From positions 1,604,999 through 1,668,998 of the forward strand of contig OY282459.1 of assembly GCA_958296285.1 (NCBI GenBank): DNA of 64,000 nucleotides, written 5' to 3'. Origin of the DNA: an uncultured Alphaproteobacteria bacterium. Its GTDB lineage: Bacteria > Pseudomonadota > Alphaproteobacteria > JAPOUT01 > G958296285. The notes under the pieces are model-generated. The model did not search any database, had not been told where the DNA came from, and saw nothing but the letters and a program-made list of their open reading frames with translations. Positions 24,599 through 57,368 of the stretch are shown here, in pieces; position 1 is the first letter of the stretch, and each line of letters opens with the position of its first letter. A program made the position numbers and the translations under genes.

Positions 24599-24785
24599 GT
24601 CGGCGGGCTTTACTTGCTTTGTTGCGCCACGCCCGCCGCCCTTTCGGGGGTTTCCCCCGAACCCCCTTTTTCTTGGGGGGCTAGCCCCCCAAACCCCCCT
24701 TCACCTCAAGCTTCTATGCGTTAGTTCCCCTGCGGCAAAAACAAACCCCTATCCATGCAAAAGATGCCCGCGGCGGCTCGCCGCC
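24599..24785. repeat. Composite REP/MITE-like intergenic element, copy R1 (modules C-hairpin-B-A in reverse orientation)
   Basis: GTCGGCGGGC...GCCCGCCG; TTCGGGGGTTTCCCCCGAA hairpin; CTTGGGGGGCTAGCCCCCCAA palindrome (24672-24692); then a ~85-bp block that is the reverse complement of the block at 27836-27935 and 53226-53345. Confidence 0.7.
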
Positions 24786-24816
24786 TTACATTGTCTTTCT
24801 TACTTTGTCAGTTTCT

Positions 24817-25953
24817 TTAGCGCCCGCCAAAGTCAAACGGCTCAGTGGCGACAATCCCGATCTCGCCCCTCAGCCCCGCCAGATAGCCGCCGAGCGCCAC
24901 GCGTTGCTGACGAGAATCGCGGGAATCTATCCTAATCCAATCGCCATCGGCGTTTTTCCGAAGAGCGATCAGATGCTCGCCTTCGCCAATGATGAGTCTG
25001 TCGCCGGGATAGGAATCCATGCGCGCCGCCCATTCCTGCCGCGCCCGCGGCTCTTGCGGCGCGGCGACATGACGATACCGCGCCCGCGCGAGCGAAGGGT
25101 CAAACCCGCCTGTGCGAGAAAGCACGGTGATCATATGCGCGGCATGATCCACGCCCGATCCGGGCTCAGCGGCGAGACTCTGCCGCAGTTCGGCTTGCGC
25201 GCCCGAACTCATCTCGGTGCGCGATGTCAAATGCTCAGCGAAGAGATGGCCGTAAAAGCCCCGCGTCAGAACATGCCCTCCGAGGAAAGCGTTGATGGCA
25301 TGCATTCCGCTAAGATTGCCTTTTTCGTTGCTCGCCTGCCTTTCATGGTAGAACCTCTCGCCTGCTTGGACAGGATCGGGCGTCTGGCGGGCATGGAAGG
25401 TTTGGGCGTTTTTCTGCGCGACTCGGATTTGAAAAGAGGGGGTTTGCGATTGAGGCGTTTTTTCCGCGCCTGAGACGAAGCCGTCATGGGGCGCGGATTT
25501 GGGGAGAGGCATTGCGTTTCCGGCGATCATGGCTTGCGAGGCTTGACTTTTCGGCGGATGTCCAGGGATTGGTCTCTGATAGCCTCTGATATGCTTGACC
25601 ATGAGATATCCGAGCACCTCCACGAAGGATGGTTTTCCGCCCTGCTCTATTCTGAAGCGGGTTTTGACGTCTGGGGTCATCTCTTGAGGGTTTTTGGCGA
25701 GGAAGATTGCGTAGTCTCTGAGTTTGCCGACGAGGTTTGGCACATCATTTTTGTCGTAGCTTCCGTGGGGGATCCATGATGGCGCGGCGGCGGAGGCGGG
25801 GGCAGGGGCATGAGTTGGACGATAGGCGGCGCTGCTTGAGATTTGACGAACGTCTCGTCCGTAGAAATTTCCTGTGGCGAGGTTTTTGGCGTTTCCTGTG
25901 TTTTGTCGCGGCGAGACGGGAGGCGCGCCGCCATCTATCCGCCCGATGGTCAT
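24817..25953 (-). CDS. Josephin-domain (Machado-Joseph deubiquitinase-like, peptidase C86) protein with one N-terminal ~65-aa module
   Basis: C-terminal domain has YHERQ..LSGMHAINAFLGG (catalytic Cys context; compare ataxin-3 FHEKQEGSLCAQHCLNNLLQG) and GEHLIALRKNADGDWIRIDS (compare ataxin-3 EHWFTVRKLGKQWFNLNS), so the Cys/His/Asn triad is in place. N-terminal module LRDYAIFLAKNPQEMTPDVKTRF..GGKPSFVEVLGYLMVKH. Paralog of the next gene. Confidence 0.72.
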   Translation of the reverse strand: MTIGRIDGGAPPVSPRQNTGNAKNLATGNFYGRDVRQISSSAAYRPTHAPAPASAAAPSWIPHGSYDKNDVPNLVGKLRDYAIFLAKNPQEMTPDVKTRFRIEQGGKPSFVEVLGYLMVKHIRGYQRPIPGHPPKSQASQAMIAGNAMPLPKSAPHDGFVSGAEKTPQSQTPSFQIRVAQKNAQTFHARQTPDPVQAGERFYHERQASNEKGNLSGMHAINAFLGGHVLTRGFYGHLFAEHLTSRTEMSSGAQAELRQSLAAEPGSGVDHAAHMITVLSRTGGFDPSLARARYRHVAAPQEPRARQEWAARMDSYPGDRLIIGEGEHLIALRKNADGDWIRIDSRDSRQQRVALGGYLAGLRGEIGIVATEPFDFGGR

Positions 25954-25967
25954 TGCTCCGCCCTTTA

Positions 25968-55451: not shown

Positions 55452-55545
55452 TTGGGGGGGTCGGCGGGCTTCCTCGCAGGCTCGCGCTACGCGCTTCGCT
55501 CGCAAGTGCTTTTTCCTACCCTACCCCCGCGCTTCGCGCTGCTTG
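55452..55545. repeat. REP/MITE-like element, copy R10 (overlaps 3-prime end of the methyltransferase-HNH gene)
   Basis: TTGGGGGGGTCGGCGGGCTTCCTCGCAGGCTCGCGCTACGCGCTTCGCTCGCAAG... Confidence 0.55.
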
Positions 55546-56990
55546 ATCCATCCTTTATCTGTAAGACATTTGAGCAGATATTCCTGCGACTTTACGCCCT
55601 TGAGCCTGTTGCATGAACCGCATAGAAGTTGCAGGTTGCTGATGTGATCGGTTCCGCCTTTGCTTCGCGGGATGATGTGGTCTGTTTCTAGATTCTGCAT
55701 TTGGAAGTGCTGCCCGCATCCGTTGCAGTAGCCGCCTTGCTCGCCATAGAGCAGTTTTTTGTTTTCAGGACTGTTATATTTTTTCGGGATCTCGATGTCC
55801 GTGCGTTTTGGTATATCGGTGCGCCGAATACATTGATAAAACAAGCCCAGTTCATTTTTCAGGCGATCATCAACCAAGTCGGCGGCTTTGGACGAGATAT
55901 CAATGCCAATCCATTCCCGCTGTTTGTTTTCAGCGGCGATGCATGCGGTGGCGCACCCGCAGAATGGATCAAACACAATATCCCCCGAGTTGCTAGACGC
56001 CATGACAATGCGCTCCACCAGCTTCAACGGTTTCTGCGTGGGGTAATGCGTATTTTCTTTAGAAGAGGCGCTTAACGGAGGAATATCGGTCCACAGATTC
56101 GGGGGTTTTTGCCCTTGGTCAGGCGCGAGATAGCGTTTGAGGTTTGGAAAACCATCTTTCCCCGGATGATGGATTAAATCGTGTTTATCCAAGAAATCTA
56201 GCCGGTCATGCACGCCTCTTATGGCGAGGTAACCAGGGGCTAAAACCTTATCAATATATTTGGCATATTCCCCGCTTTTGGGGACAGACCAATGCCTGCC
56301 GCCATAGTTGGAAGGATTGTATCCCTTCCAGGGTCGTCCTGACTCGCCTGAACTAGTCTCCGCCCCCGTCAAGTCGCCCGTTCGATAAACACCTCGCTTG
56401 TCTTTGTGACGGTAATATTTTTTTACATATTCAGAATTAAGAGGCAGGCGGTTCGCAGGGACATCTTTGGGACTTGCCCCATAAAACAGAATAGAATCGG
56501 TTATCCTTCCGAACACCTTGTCGTTATGAGCAGATGTGCGCTGCCACGTAATCTCACCCTGAAACTTATTGCTCCCAAAAATGCAGTCCATTAAGAGTTT
56601 TAAGTAATGGCTGGCTGTGGAGTCGCAGTGCAGATAGATTGAGCCCGTTGCTTTAAGTATGCGCCGCATTTCAATAATGCGAATAACCATGTAGATCAGA
56701 TATGCCATCATGGAATCGCTGTGTCCTTCGCGCACAGCTGAAAGCAGAGAATACAGGGTTGGATTCTCATGTTTGATGATTCCATGCCAAGCGAGGCTGA
56801 TATCGTTCAACCCCCATGTGTCCTTGAATTCGGCGCCTGCAGCTTGGCTGCCAATCGGCGCGGCATAATTGGCGTTGGAATTGAAGGGGGGGTCTAGATA
56901 AATCAGGTCAACCGAGGCGCTGTTCATGCCCCGCATGATGTCAAGGTTGTCGCCCGTCCAAAGCGTGCGGTTTTTCCAATTGGGAGGCAT
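55521..56990 (-). CDS. DNA N6-adenine methyltransferase fused to a C-terminal HNH endonuclease domain
   Basis: Motif IV DLIYLDPPFNSN, motif I DIVFDPFCGCATACIAA, then C-terminal HNH CNGCGQHF...DHIIPRSKGGTDHISNLQLLCGSCNRLKG. Confidence 0.85.
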   Translation of the reverse strand: MPPNWKNRTLWTGDNLDIMRGMNSASVDLIYLDPPFNSNANYAAPIGSQAAGAEFKDTWGLNDISLAWHGIIKHENPTLYSLLSAVREGHSDSMMAYLIYMVIRIIEMRRILKATGSIYLHCDSTASHYLKLLMDCIFGSNKFQGEITWQRTSAHNDKVFGRITDSILFYGASPKDVPANRLPLNSEYVKKYYRHKDKRGVYRTGDLTGAETSSGESGRPWKGYNPSNYGGRHWSVPKSGEYAKYIDKVLAPGYLAIRGVHDRLDFLDKHDLIHHPGKDGFPNLKRYLAPDQGQKPPNLWTDIPPLSASSKENTHYPTQKPLKLVERIVMASSNSGDIVFDPFCGCATACIAAENKQREWIGIDISSKAADLVDDRLKNELGLFYQCIRRTDIPKRTDIEIPKKYNSPENKKLLYGEQGGYCNGCGQHFQMQNLETDHIIPRSKGGTDHISNLQLLCGSCNRLKGVKSQEYLLKCLTDKGWIKQREARG

Positions 56991-57104
56991 AGCCCGTTCT
57001 CTATCGGCGAATCAGCAGTGATGTTCATTTTAAAGCTAGAAAATCTTTAAAGCTAGGAAATCTTGAAATTAGAGGGAAGGCTAAAAAACAATTCTAGGCG
57101 CACG

Positions 57105-57368
57105 CGATGCAGGGGTGTCGGCGGGCTTTCTGCTTACAAGAGCTCTTGCGAACAGGGGGGTCGGCGGGCTTCTCGCGGGCTTGCGCTACGCGCTACGCCC
57201 GCTTCGTTGCGCCACGCCCGCCGACTATAGCGGGCTTCGCCCGCTTGGTTTTTCTTGGGGGGCTAGCCCCCCAAACCCCCCTTCACCTTCAGCTTCTATG
57301 CGTTAGTTCCCCTGCGGCAAAAACACATGCCTATCCATGAAAAAGATGCCTGTCGCGGCAGCGACCTC
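57105..57368. repeat. Composite REP/MITE-like element, copy R11 (TIR-C-hairpin-B-A reverse)
   Basis: CAAGAGCTCTTGCGAACAGGGGGGTCGGCGGGC...GCCACGCCCGCCGAC; GCGGGCTTCGCCCGC; CTTGGGGGGCTAGCCCCCCAA; then the reverse-complement module A, as in copy R1. Confidence 0.7.

Follow-up and report, generated by a model that had tools for sequence, protein, structure and literature searches.

The bacterial interspersed mosaic elements (BIMEs) of Escherichia coli are mosaics of repetitive extragenic palindromic (REP) units that bind IHF, gyrase and Pol I. They are not known to delimit strain-variable gene cassettes in the way described below. In Neisseria, the arrays that neisserial intergenic mosaic elements (NIMEs) form at a given syntenic site are composed differently from strain to strain and have been proposed to promote the exchange of adjacent genes; unique restriction-modification (R-M) genes sit in minimal mobile elements (MMEs), and a comparison from 2007 stated that no such arrays had been seen outside this genus (PMC1797815). 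GTAG-tagged REPs occur in all proteobacterial classes, where they form heterodimers and clusters (PMC3733652). Furuta, Abe and Kobayashi (2010, PMC2853133) describe R-M units that are inserted into operon-like clusters with long direct repeats at their flanks, R-M genes flanked by direct or inverted repeats, and allelic substitution of R-M types. Here we analyze a family of mosaic intergenic elements in a 64,000-nt stretch of DNA from an uncultured alphaproteobacterium (contig OY282459.1, positions 1,604,999 to 1,668,998 of the forward strand), hereafter called the window.

The elements probably form a lineage-specific family of intergenic mosaic repeats, comparable in kind to BIMEs and NIMEs, which would act as portable homology when cassettes are exchanged. 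In each of them, short hairpin modules are strung together, and the order and orientation of the modules vary. In behaviour they come closest to the NIME arrays with MMEs, and in architecture they resemble the BIMEs most. Two features are unusual, an invariant hairpin grammar and the position of the cassette slots inside core operons.

All 11 coordinate ranges in which an earlier interpretation of the letters alone (the sequence-only reading) had listed copies hold the described repeats, and a twelfth, remnant copy was found in addition. A repeat finder applied to the window returned at least 25 inverted-repeat pairs of 31-98 nt with 76-100% identity that connect the element loci, and the direct-repeat families D15 and D16 connect them likewise. 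With up to two mismatches, GGGGGGCTAGCCCCCC matched seven times (0.01 expected; none of 100 shuffles reached seven), and with up to one mismatch, GGTCGGCGGGC matched 19 times (3.1 expected; none of 100 shuffles reached 19). According to a regular-expression census of the window, module clusters were confined to 24.6-57.4 kb, and module matches were absent from 1-24.5 kb and 57.4-64 kb. All intergenic gaps of more than 110 nt within 24.6-57.4 kb hold an element (the sequence-only reading had spoken of nearly every gap). The name 'accessory half' given to this region was wrong: here, cassettes interrupt a series of core operons (suf, anmK, glnE, sigma factor, ccmEFH). The elements are all intergenic, contain recurrent linker and spacer motifs, and vary in size (78-270 nt) and module content. 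Since they recur in two independent long-read assemblies, those of the related strains A and B, they are not assembly artefacts.

At least seven modules, instead of the four originally distinguished, make up the elements: A, B, C (its X and Y arms are unlike each other), D, E, F and a palindromic linker. Module A, which had been described as a block of ~100 bp in both orientations, does occur in both, but its length had to be corrected to ~87 nt (four copies). It starts with a 5' hairpin (GGCGGCGAGCCGCC or GTCGCTGCCGCGAC), which is duplicated in element 8, followed by CATCTTTTT and an unstructured body; a convincing sigma-70-type promoter could not be read in this module. Module B is a G6-loop-C6 hairpin with a further C-run after 2-4 nt, and module E has the form CGGGGG-WTT-CCCCCG, followed by AA or AT, a C-run and a T-run. 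Module F, a short GC-rich hairpin plus T-run, e.g., (G/A)TAGCGGGCTTCGCCCGCTTGGTTTTT, resembles a canonical terminator. Module C is a three-tier hairpin with the outer stem GTCGGCGGGC/GCCCGCCGAC, in which two variable inner tiers lie between the Y arm (GGGGGGTCGGCGGGCTTCTCGC) and the X arm (GTCGGCGGGCGTGGCGCAACGAAGC). Module D (CGCGTGGGTGGGTCGC...CCCACCCACCCACGCG) is a hairpin of ~72 nt present in two copies and not a 100-bp inverted repeat. The linker is a palindrome with the ideal form CCCCCCTGCTCGCAAGAGCTCTTGCGAGCAGGGGGG and recurs inside elements at 28670, 57138 and 53810. Frequently, C or D comes first, E or F (including its T-run) second and B third, and a reversed A or an end reading TT(A/C)ACGGGAG closes the series.

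For strains A and B, matching regions of 43 kb and 42 kb, respectively, were assembled and compared with the window. The flanking genes are 96-99.5% identical to those of the window. Between 24 and 58 kb, six sites vary, and their breaks fall within or next to repeats. The proposal that the elements mark insertion points of accessory genes was borne out by insertions, deletions or replacements of the DUF4760, HSDR_N-like, Mrr and methylase-HNH genes, each of which breaks in or beside an element. At the site of element 1, the window has module A and strain A a second C hairpin together with a 71-aa MSLAKVYDAF gene. The segment 27840-28766, comprising module A and the DUF4760 gene, corresponds in strain B to 216 nt of C and D modules; the DUF4760 cassette is present in the window and strain A and absent in strain B. 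The HSDR_N slot holds a 369-aa gene in the window and a different 305-aa gene in strain B, with the left breakpoint at the end of element 4, whose site contains other modules in strain B. The Mrr slot, which the metal-resistance gene and the acyl-CoA dehydrogenase genes enclose, has three alleles in three strains, namely Mrr in the window, another gene (339 aa) in strain A and a PDDEXK gene in strain B, and element 6 is absent in strain A. The segment 55498-57155 with the methylase-HNH gene is missing from both strains, which have a single uninterrupted element instead. Modules are also exchanged at one site: between identical flanks, element 5 of the window reads D+E+B and that of strain B C+F+B, and element 8 reads A+B+F and B-variant+E, respectively. 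Altogether, elements 1, 4, 5, 7, 8 and 9 differ from strain A or B by whole modules or loops.

Three of the cassettes (DUF4760, methylase-HNH and Mrr) have direct repeats of element sequence at both boundaries (17 nt; 22-24 nt; 15 nt with 13/15 identical). The junctions fall at differing points of a shared composite of ~45 nt, CGCAAGAGCTCTTGCGAGCAGGGGGGTCGGCGGGCTTCTCGC, which fits homology-driven crossover better than a single fixed crossover point. Taken together, the bounding direct repeats, the scattered junctions and the module swaps fit recombination between dispersed copies. We propose that the elements, which would encode nothing and be non-autonomous, supply 15-45 nt or more of common sequence between core genes, and that accessory genes flanked by them could be inserted, deleted or replaced via homologous recombination, whether the partner is another site of the genome or DNA imported from other strains. 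Recombination and gene conversion between copies might also diversify the elements themselves, as the module swaps at orthologous sites suggest. The outcome would be the strain-variable cassette slots inside conserved operons that appear in the three-strain comparison. The density of single-nucleotide polymorphisms (SNPs) relative to strains A and B (window 19000-63000) is mosaic, with stretches of several kb at 0% beside blocks of 1-3.5%, which points to a recombining population with frequent homologous recombination. A further difference between the strains concerns the gene for HU (Bac_DNA_binding; 50590-50840, minus strand), in which 100 nt present in strains A and B are missing in the window near 50745; the gene of the window strain is probably broken by a deletion between GGTGA direct repeats.

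The sequence-only reading had called the repeats probably mobile or recombinogenic and had likened their ends to those of miniature inverted-repeat transposable elements (MITEs). The strain junctions support the recombinogenic part and the marking of insertion points, but not the MITE part. For MITEs, i.e., non-autonomous transposons with terminal inverted repeats mobilized by a transposase encoded elsewhere, one might cite the inverted-repeat ends CTCTTGCGAGCAGGGGGG/CCCCCCTGCTCGCAAGAG that flank some C and D modules, and element 9, a single 141-nt hairpin of MITE-like size. However, none of the strain-defined junctions shows a target-site duplication, a feature that had been suggested as a check; the direct repeats there are element sequence itself. 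The proposed terminal repeat, AGCTCTTGCGAGCAGGGGGG with its complement, turned out to be palindromic linker halves between modules, or the outer stem of C, and not a terminus. Moreover, the element ends differ from copy to copy, as do size and content, and no insertion sequence (IS) sharing these ends was found in the window or at the one tnpB locus seen (L149). In agreement with the sequence-only reading, no transposase was found among the larger open reading frames (ORFs) of the window, and integrase or transposase domains were not found in the window ORFs either (both Pfam). We therefore regard MITEs as a very unlikely explanation.

The hairpin structure of the modules is kept under constraint: B, C, D, E and F form strong hairpins, with compensatory changes from copy to copy. 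Folded as single-stranded DNA, seven of ten element segments were more stable than shuffled sequences, with z scores from -4.2 to -8.6, whereas two degenerate or chimeric pieces (elements 6 and 10; -1.2 and +1.15) and the body of module A folded no better than shuffles. Watson-Crick pairs occupy the two closing positions in 18/20 and 20/20 distinct G-run hairpins, respectively, and the loop ends pair too; the closing pairs of the G-run/C-run hairpins, which were counted by direct parsing and not from an alignment, are of four kinds (T-A, A-T, C-G and G-C). In the C hairpin, four inner pairs are changed on both sides and 93% of the cells are paired (nine distinct rows, a small sample), the inner stem occurring as GCAGGC/GCCTGC, GCGGGC/GCCCGC, GCAAAC/GTTTGC and GCGCGC/GCGCGC. 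Only 0-5 of 500 shuffles matched the covariation values of C, and slid registers gave far lower ones. The stems of F also vary between copies (GCGGGC, GGCGGGC, GCGGCGC, GGCTGCC), with constant flanks.

A second regularity concerns the G-run/C-run hairpins. In five sequences examined, 59/59 of them have exactly one extra run, on one side only, and all share the invariant layout of G-run, loop, C-run, 2-4 nt and C-run. In the distant relative represented by locus L022 there is one G-run/C-run hairpin, which has no extra run. This layout is precisely the order of strands that an intramolecular triplex requires, and in E-B doublets it places four G-runs on one strand. The G-quadruplex at pilE of Neisseria triggers recombination. 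By analogy, recombination might here be marked or triggered by such a non-B DNA structure. Canonical G-quadruplex motifs (loops of up to 7 nt) are not enriched in the elements, and versions with long loops occur in E-B doublets only. Intergenic repeats of Caulobacter carry CcrM sites (GANTC); in the elements GANTC is not enriched (6 observed, 6.1 +/- 2.5 expected), and some E loops read GATTC. In a search of the window against Rfam 15 at the gathering score, only the transfer-messenger RNA (tmRNA) matched and the elements did not; with an E-value threshold, sub-threshold matches to Clostridiales-2 appeared on E-B doublets (28 bits, cut-off 58.6). It is improbable, in our estimate, that the elements are the working sites of a dedicated cassette-exchange system in which a recombinase or nuclease encoded elsewhere reads the folded hairpins. 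If this were true, the family would represent integron-like but dispersed gene capture in a reduced alphaproteobacterial genome.

A related explanation, likewise quite unlikely, is a dedicated site-specific system, integron-like or of the kind of the dRS3 recombinase proposed for Neisseria, in which a recombinase reads the folded C/Y hairpin and moves a gene together with its hairpin. It would account for the three cassettes with direct copies of the same arm at both ends, for the long imperfect hairpins that follow most accessory genes and keep structure rather than sequence, and for the location of cassettes within operons with little other damage; the single extra run of the G-run hairpins resembles a recognition feature. 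Integron cassettes are similar in that a promoter-poor small accessory gene is followed by an imperfect palindrome whose structure is conserved over sequence, and in that part of the site is repeated directly at the cassette boundaries. However, the junctions vary in position (Y arm, G-run or linker). At the DUF4760 site, what distinguishes the strains is a complex change of modules and not a clean insertion. The elements do not form a unidirectional array either, but are scattered among core genes in both orientations. The attC core pattern RYYYAAC...GTTRRRY matched twice in the window and never in an element; intI was not found in the window ORFs, and no integrase or recombinase was found in the ~167 kb inspected.

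The sequence-only reading had further suggested that the elements act as terminators or mRNA-stability hairpins. A terminator scan found a GC-rich stem-loop with T-run at eight family sites (F, E and the second 5' hairpin of A), in agreement with the structural part of this claim, and a terminator role for these hairpins is plausible. Their orientation does not agree with it, since only 4/8 point with the local genes and 4/8 against them (4/8 on the plus strand, the local genes being mostly on the minus strand), so that termination cannot be the organizing principle. As a secondary role, composite elements might serve as bidirectional transcriptional insulators around inserted genes; five of them carry a T-run hairpin facing each way. 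It is extremely unlikely that the family consists of nothing but ordinary GC-rich terminators or mRNA-stabilizing hairpins that evolved in place with no role in mobility or recombination. The position of most elements after a stop codon, the eight scan results and the T-run hairpins in both directions would fit, but modules A, C and D lack a T-run, and L022 manages with short plain gaps. The long identities between unrelated loci and the exchange of whole modules between strains with flanks of 97-99% identity exclude plain terminators as a full account.

REP sequences or their inverted doublets (REPINs), copied by a REP-associated tyrosine transposase (RAYT, a domesticated HUH enzyme) encoded elsewhere in the genome, offer another explanation, in which the association with cassettes would be a by-product. 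Its appeal lies in the form of the repeats. The six F hairpins of the window are palindromes of 20-25 nt after GTAG (two) or ATAG (four), small GTAG-tagged hairpins (GTAGCCACTCGTGGC) lie in C loops, module C combines two inverted arms in one long hairpin like a REPIN dimer, and the elements are extragenic and clustered. Tagged short hairpins (in F, GTAG/ATAG plus a 5-7-bp stem), inverted doublets, clusters and heterodimers are also typical of the GTAG REPs (PMC3733652), and the genome contains at least one tnpB gene of the IS200/IS605 family (locus L149 of strain A). On the other hand, the tag is inconsistent, as just 2/6 tagged hairpins bear GTAG itself, and it is not enriched in the elements (15 versus 12.3 +/- 3.6), while CGTC is depleted (3 versus 23.8). 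The arms of C are unlike each other and neither is palindromic alone, and the bulk of the elements (A, C arms, D, B/E) does not have REP form. Neither the window nor ~60 kb of other loci (L148-L150) showed a Y1 transposase, and the repeats beside tnpB are unrelated to the mosaic modules. We consider this explanation unlikely. The tnpB gene of strain A (OrfB_IS605/Cas12f-like, 395 aa; L149 8535-10000) is followed by three TTTCGCCCCCTGTGGAGTCAGCGATACGAATCCCG units of ~40 nt, which may be an omega-RNA or IS right-end region.

Several observations weigh against recombination between dispersed repeats as the basis of cassette exchange. The mechanism is read from end states, and no intermediate or enzyme was seen. 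Homologous recombination accounts for exchange between strains in which cassettes are already flanked by repeats, but leaves the first arrival of a foreign gene between repeats unexplained. In the HSDR_N and Mrr slots just one breakpoint of the two coincides with an element, and the HU deletion (50745) as well as the variable sites at 60.1-63.8 kb have no elements. The boundaries of the SNP divergence blocks are not aligned with elements at 1-kb resolution, and the terminator-like hairpins are randomly oriented relative to the local genes. Finally, the inspected ~167 kb are part of a genome of ~1.7 Mb, and two of the three extra loci had been chosen via a gene family that adjoins elements.

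The resemblance to the NIME/MME system extends over several features. In both cases, mosaic arrays of short units occupy fixed positions with a composition that varies between strains, flank small strain-specific gene sets, notably for R-M, between conserved genes, with alternative sets per site, and are proposed substrates for recombination with imported DNA (PMC1797815). The sequences are unrelated, and the dRS3 unit is missing here (ATTCCC-N8-GGGAAT: no match with up to one mismatch). NIMEs are 20-bp inverted repeats that bracket RS elements, whereas the present family has multi-tier and G-run/C-run hairpins, and its host is an uncultured alphaproteobacterium with a small genome. With BIMEs the elements share the extragenic location at 3' ends and between operon genes, the inversion of two unlike palindromic unit types (here X and Y arms around variable loops), linker motifs, and suggested roles as terminators or stabilizers; there is no sequence similarity, and the units are longer and more varied. 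The R-M units of Furuta, Abe and Kobayashi (PMC2853133) likewise involve R-M genes in operon-like clusters, direct or inverted repeats at their flanks and the substitution of alleles at one locus. The direct repeats described there are local target duplications, whereas here they are copies of a genome-wide repeat family.

That the family recurs elsewhere in the genome, as expected by the sequence-only reading, was seen in further regions of strain A: L148 contains three elements and L150 four to five, L149 none. The elements in L148 and L150 indicate a genome-wide family. These loci were obtained with a small protein family as bait, so that sampling is biased toward cassette sites. Locus L022, from a relative whose CcmF is 57% identical, has the same order of grx, ccmH-TPR, GH46, ccmE, ccmF, ccmH, HU, glnE, the sigma-factor gene, the metal-resistance gene and two acyl-CoA dehydrogenase genes; its syntenic gaps (38-139 nt) contain no modules and no cassettes. 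Together with the repeat counts and the strain comparison, this agrees with a real, modular and lineage-restricted family that occurs in both orientations. Distant-mode blastn searches of plasmids and phages with two whole elements and of viral contigs with three module patterns gave no match.

A metagenome scan with GGTCGGCGGGC-N25-55-GCCCGCCGACC produced at least 120 matches. This pattern is too generic, and the inspected matches were GC-rich coding sequence or other hairpins, none with X- or Y-arm interiors. Matches of B plus the third C-run in a genome collection that lacks the source genome belonged to a different motif of Rhodobacteraceae. Genomes of many Rhodobacteraceae contain one or two exact copies of the 25-mer GGGGGGCTAGCCCCCCAAACCCCCC, which lies shortly past stop codons and is always followed by AGGATATTT-N5-10-AAGATGAA; no Rfam family covers this motif. 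Examples among loci L001-L021 are L002 1774-1830, L005 5180-5236 and L008 6345 and 6448. Sister copies have other hairpins in the same layout (hairpin, 3 nt, repeated 3' stem half), and GGGGGGCTAGCCCCCCAAACCCCCC is also present in metagenome-assembled genomes of one cyanobacterium, two Bathyarchaeia and one member of the Lachnospiraceae.

The host genome has ~1.73 Mb and ~55% GC. Since the nearest relative of its CcmF beyond the own genome is the one with only 57% identity, the host is a divergent alphaproteobacterium. Core genes of the region (Pfam) are the suf operon, anmK, two acyl-CoA dehydrogenase genes, a sigma/anti-sigma pair, glnE, ccmF/ccmH and ccmE. Between them lie the accessory genes, i.e., DUF4760, HSDR_N-like, the Mrr nuclease, a type II R-M pair, the methylase-HNH fusion and small coiled-coil membrane proteins. 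The GC content of cassette windows is 48-50% and that of the core 54-59%, and the nearest homologue of the methylase-HNH gene outside the own genome is 70% identical; both suggest that the cassettes are foreign in origin. No modules surround a methylase-HNH homologue of another organism (L151). The positions of the elements and cassettes are compiled in the following table.

Table 1. Mosaic elements and repeat-bounded genes in the window. Coordinates are window positions; z is the folding score relative to shuffled sequences.
Feature	Position	Strand	Composition or assignment	Setting and boundaries	z
Element 1	24598-24785		Short C hairpin 24599-24640; E with T-run 24645-24673; B with third C-run 24675-24699; reversed A 24700-24785 (-)	Between stop of 378-aa gene and start of MotA/ExbB-like gene	-4.5
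Element 2	27801-28060		Extra hairpin 27801-27839; A 27840-27926 (+); B 27927-27951; F, terminator-like, minus strand, 27955-27982; solo Y arm GGTCGGCGGGCTTTCTC 27983-27999	GC-rich tail extends to DUF4760 stop codon	
DUF4760 membrane-protein cassette	28053-28565	-	Pfam PF15956, E 5e-21	Direct GGTCGGCGGGCTTTCTC copies at 27983 and 28693	
Element 3	28665-28832		Linker CGCAAGAGCTCTTGGCG ~28666-28683; full C 28694-28763 (Y then X arm); E 28769-28793; B-variant GGGGGGCTTCGCCCCCC with third C-run 28802-28827	Terminates at TENA stop codon	-4.7
Element 4	38414-38553		B 38416-38441; E 38451-38472 (minus-strand sense); C 38477-38542 (X then Y arm)	Begins 13 nt upstream of anmK start codon	-6.1
HSDR_N-like gene, 369 aa	38574-39683	-	Pfam		
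Element 5	40207-40362		D 40222-40294; E with GATTC loop 40299-40324; B 40334-40358	Conserved end TTAACGGGAG	-8.6
Remnant	43284-43312		Linker-like CTCGCAAGAGTTCTTGCGATGCGGGGGGG	Between two paralogous small coiled-coil genes	
Element 6	44540-44617		Degenerate C-like piece, starts AAGCGAGGCGGGGGGTCGGCGGGC	Just downstream of Mrr gene	-1.2
Mrr-type (type IV) restriction-enzyme cassette	44619-45680	-	Pfam PF04471, PADLOC	AAGCGAGGCGGGGGG (44540) and AAGCGAGCAGGGGGG (45747); AAGCGAG(G/C)(C/A)GGGGGG on both sides	
Element 7	45747-45970		B-variant 45756-45783; F, minus strand, 45788-45815; half-linker; D 45835-45906; E 45911-45933; B 45943-45968	End TTTACGGGAG	
Element 8	53226-53495		A with duplicated 5' hairpin ~53230-53340 (+); B with CTTG loop 53341-53366; F, minus strand, 53370-53396; C 53398-53468; half-linker GAGCTCTTGCGT	Between ccmF start and small plus-strand gene	
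Small-protein family member, 85 aa	53552-53809	+	MSLVAVYDALKEAK...	GAGCTCTTGCG (53483) and GAGCTCTTGGCG (53812)	
Element 9	53810-53950		One long C hairpin, outer stem CTCTTGGCGTTGGGGGG/CCCCCCCTGCTCGCAAGAG	Common to two convergent genes	-5.2
Type II R-M pair	53951-55382	-	His-Me/EndoVII-like nuclease and N6/N4 methylase; Pfam, PADLOC	Inserted between ccmE and ccmF; absent there in distant relative L022	
Element 10	55452-55545		Solo Y arm GGGGGGGTCGGCGGGCTTCCTCGC fused to right half of D-like module	Left junction of methylase-HNH cassette	+1.15
Methylase-HNH fusion cassette	55521-56990	-		Direct Y-arm copies at 55455 and 57153	
Element 11	57105-57368		Solo Y arm ~57110-57135; linker 57138-57148; C 57160-57225; F with T-run 57227-57253 (+); B 57257-57281; reversed A 57282-57366 (-)	Terminates at ccmE stop codon	-5.1

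The methylase-HNH cassette has a paralog, also an N6/N4-methylase-HNH fusion, at 59590-60897 on the plus strand, 2.6 kb away and in opposite orientation; repeats of the family flank only the copy listed in the table. No elements accompany the accessory genes at 59.6-63.8 kb, although the second fusion gene and the variable genes at 60.9-63.8 kb differ from strain to strain. The small-protein family comprises at least 17 distinct members, and its 17 homologues are all from the host species alone. Its members share a near-identical N-terminus of 30 aa (MSLVAVYDALKEAKVSDHKA...), a variable coiled coil consisting of a variable number of 21-nt tandem repeats, and one of three alternative C-terminal membrane helices. 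Besides the 85-aa member, the window contains members at 43321-43563, 42767-43213 and 39781-40155 (all on the minus strand), and the genes usually adjoin a repeat element.

Of the remaining ORFs, those of 378 and 582 aa were searched for recombinases in Pfam, NCBIfam, PADLOC and PDB sequences, which gave only a weak Josephin-like match. The 582-aa protein (25968-27716, minus strand) has no match in Pfam, NCBIfam or PADLOC and a weak similarity (E 0.003) to PDB 9f5t, a bacterial Josephin-like protein. This similarity hints at a host-directed deubiquitinase and a host-associated lifestyle. An ORF of more than 3236 aa (window 1-9710, minus strand) runs off the left edge and has internal repeats of ~1.2-1.5 kb with 60-80% identity. 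The tmRNA is of the permuted, alphaproteobacterial type and lies at 11262-11639. In L022, positions 1-5475 hold tail genes of a gene-transfer agent (GTA_TIM, Phage-tail_3, Rcc01698_C), ~5 kb from the syntenic block; the counterpart in the window genome would fall just past the right end of the window. Transfer of fragments of ~4 kb would be a plausible route of import for cassettes, considering that the L022 region adjoins these genes.

If the elements do serve as portable homology, a small, fast-evolving genome would keep flexible defence genes in repeat-bounded slots within essential operons, such as those between ccmE and ccmF and at the flank of the suf operon. With its three strains, many module swaps and structural covariation, the family offers a natural data set on hairpin constraint. 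It would be an independent NIME-like example and would suggest that homologous recombination at mosaic intergenic repeats turns over cassettes quite generally.

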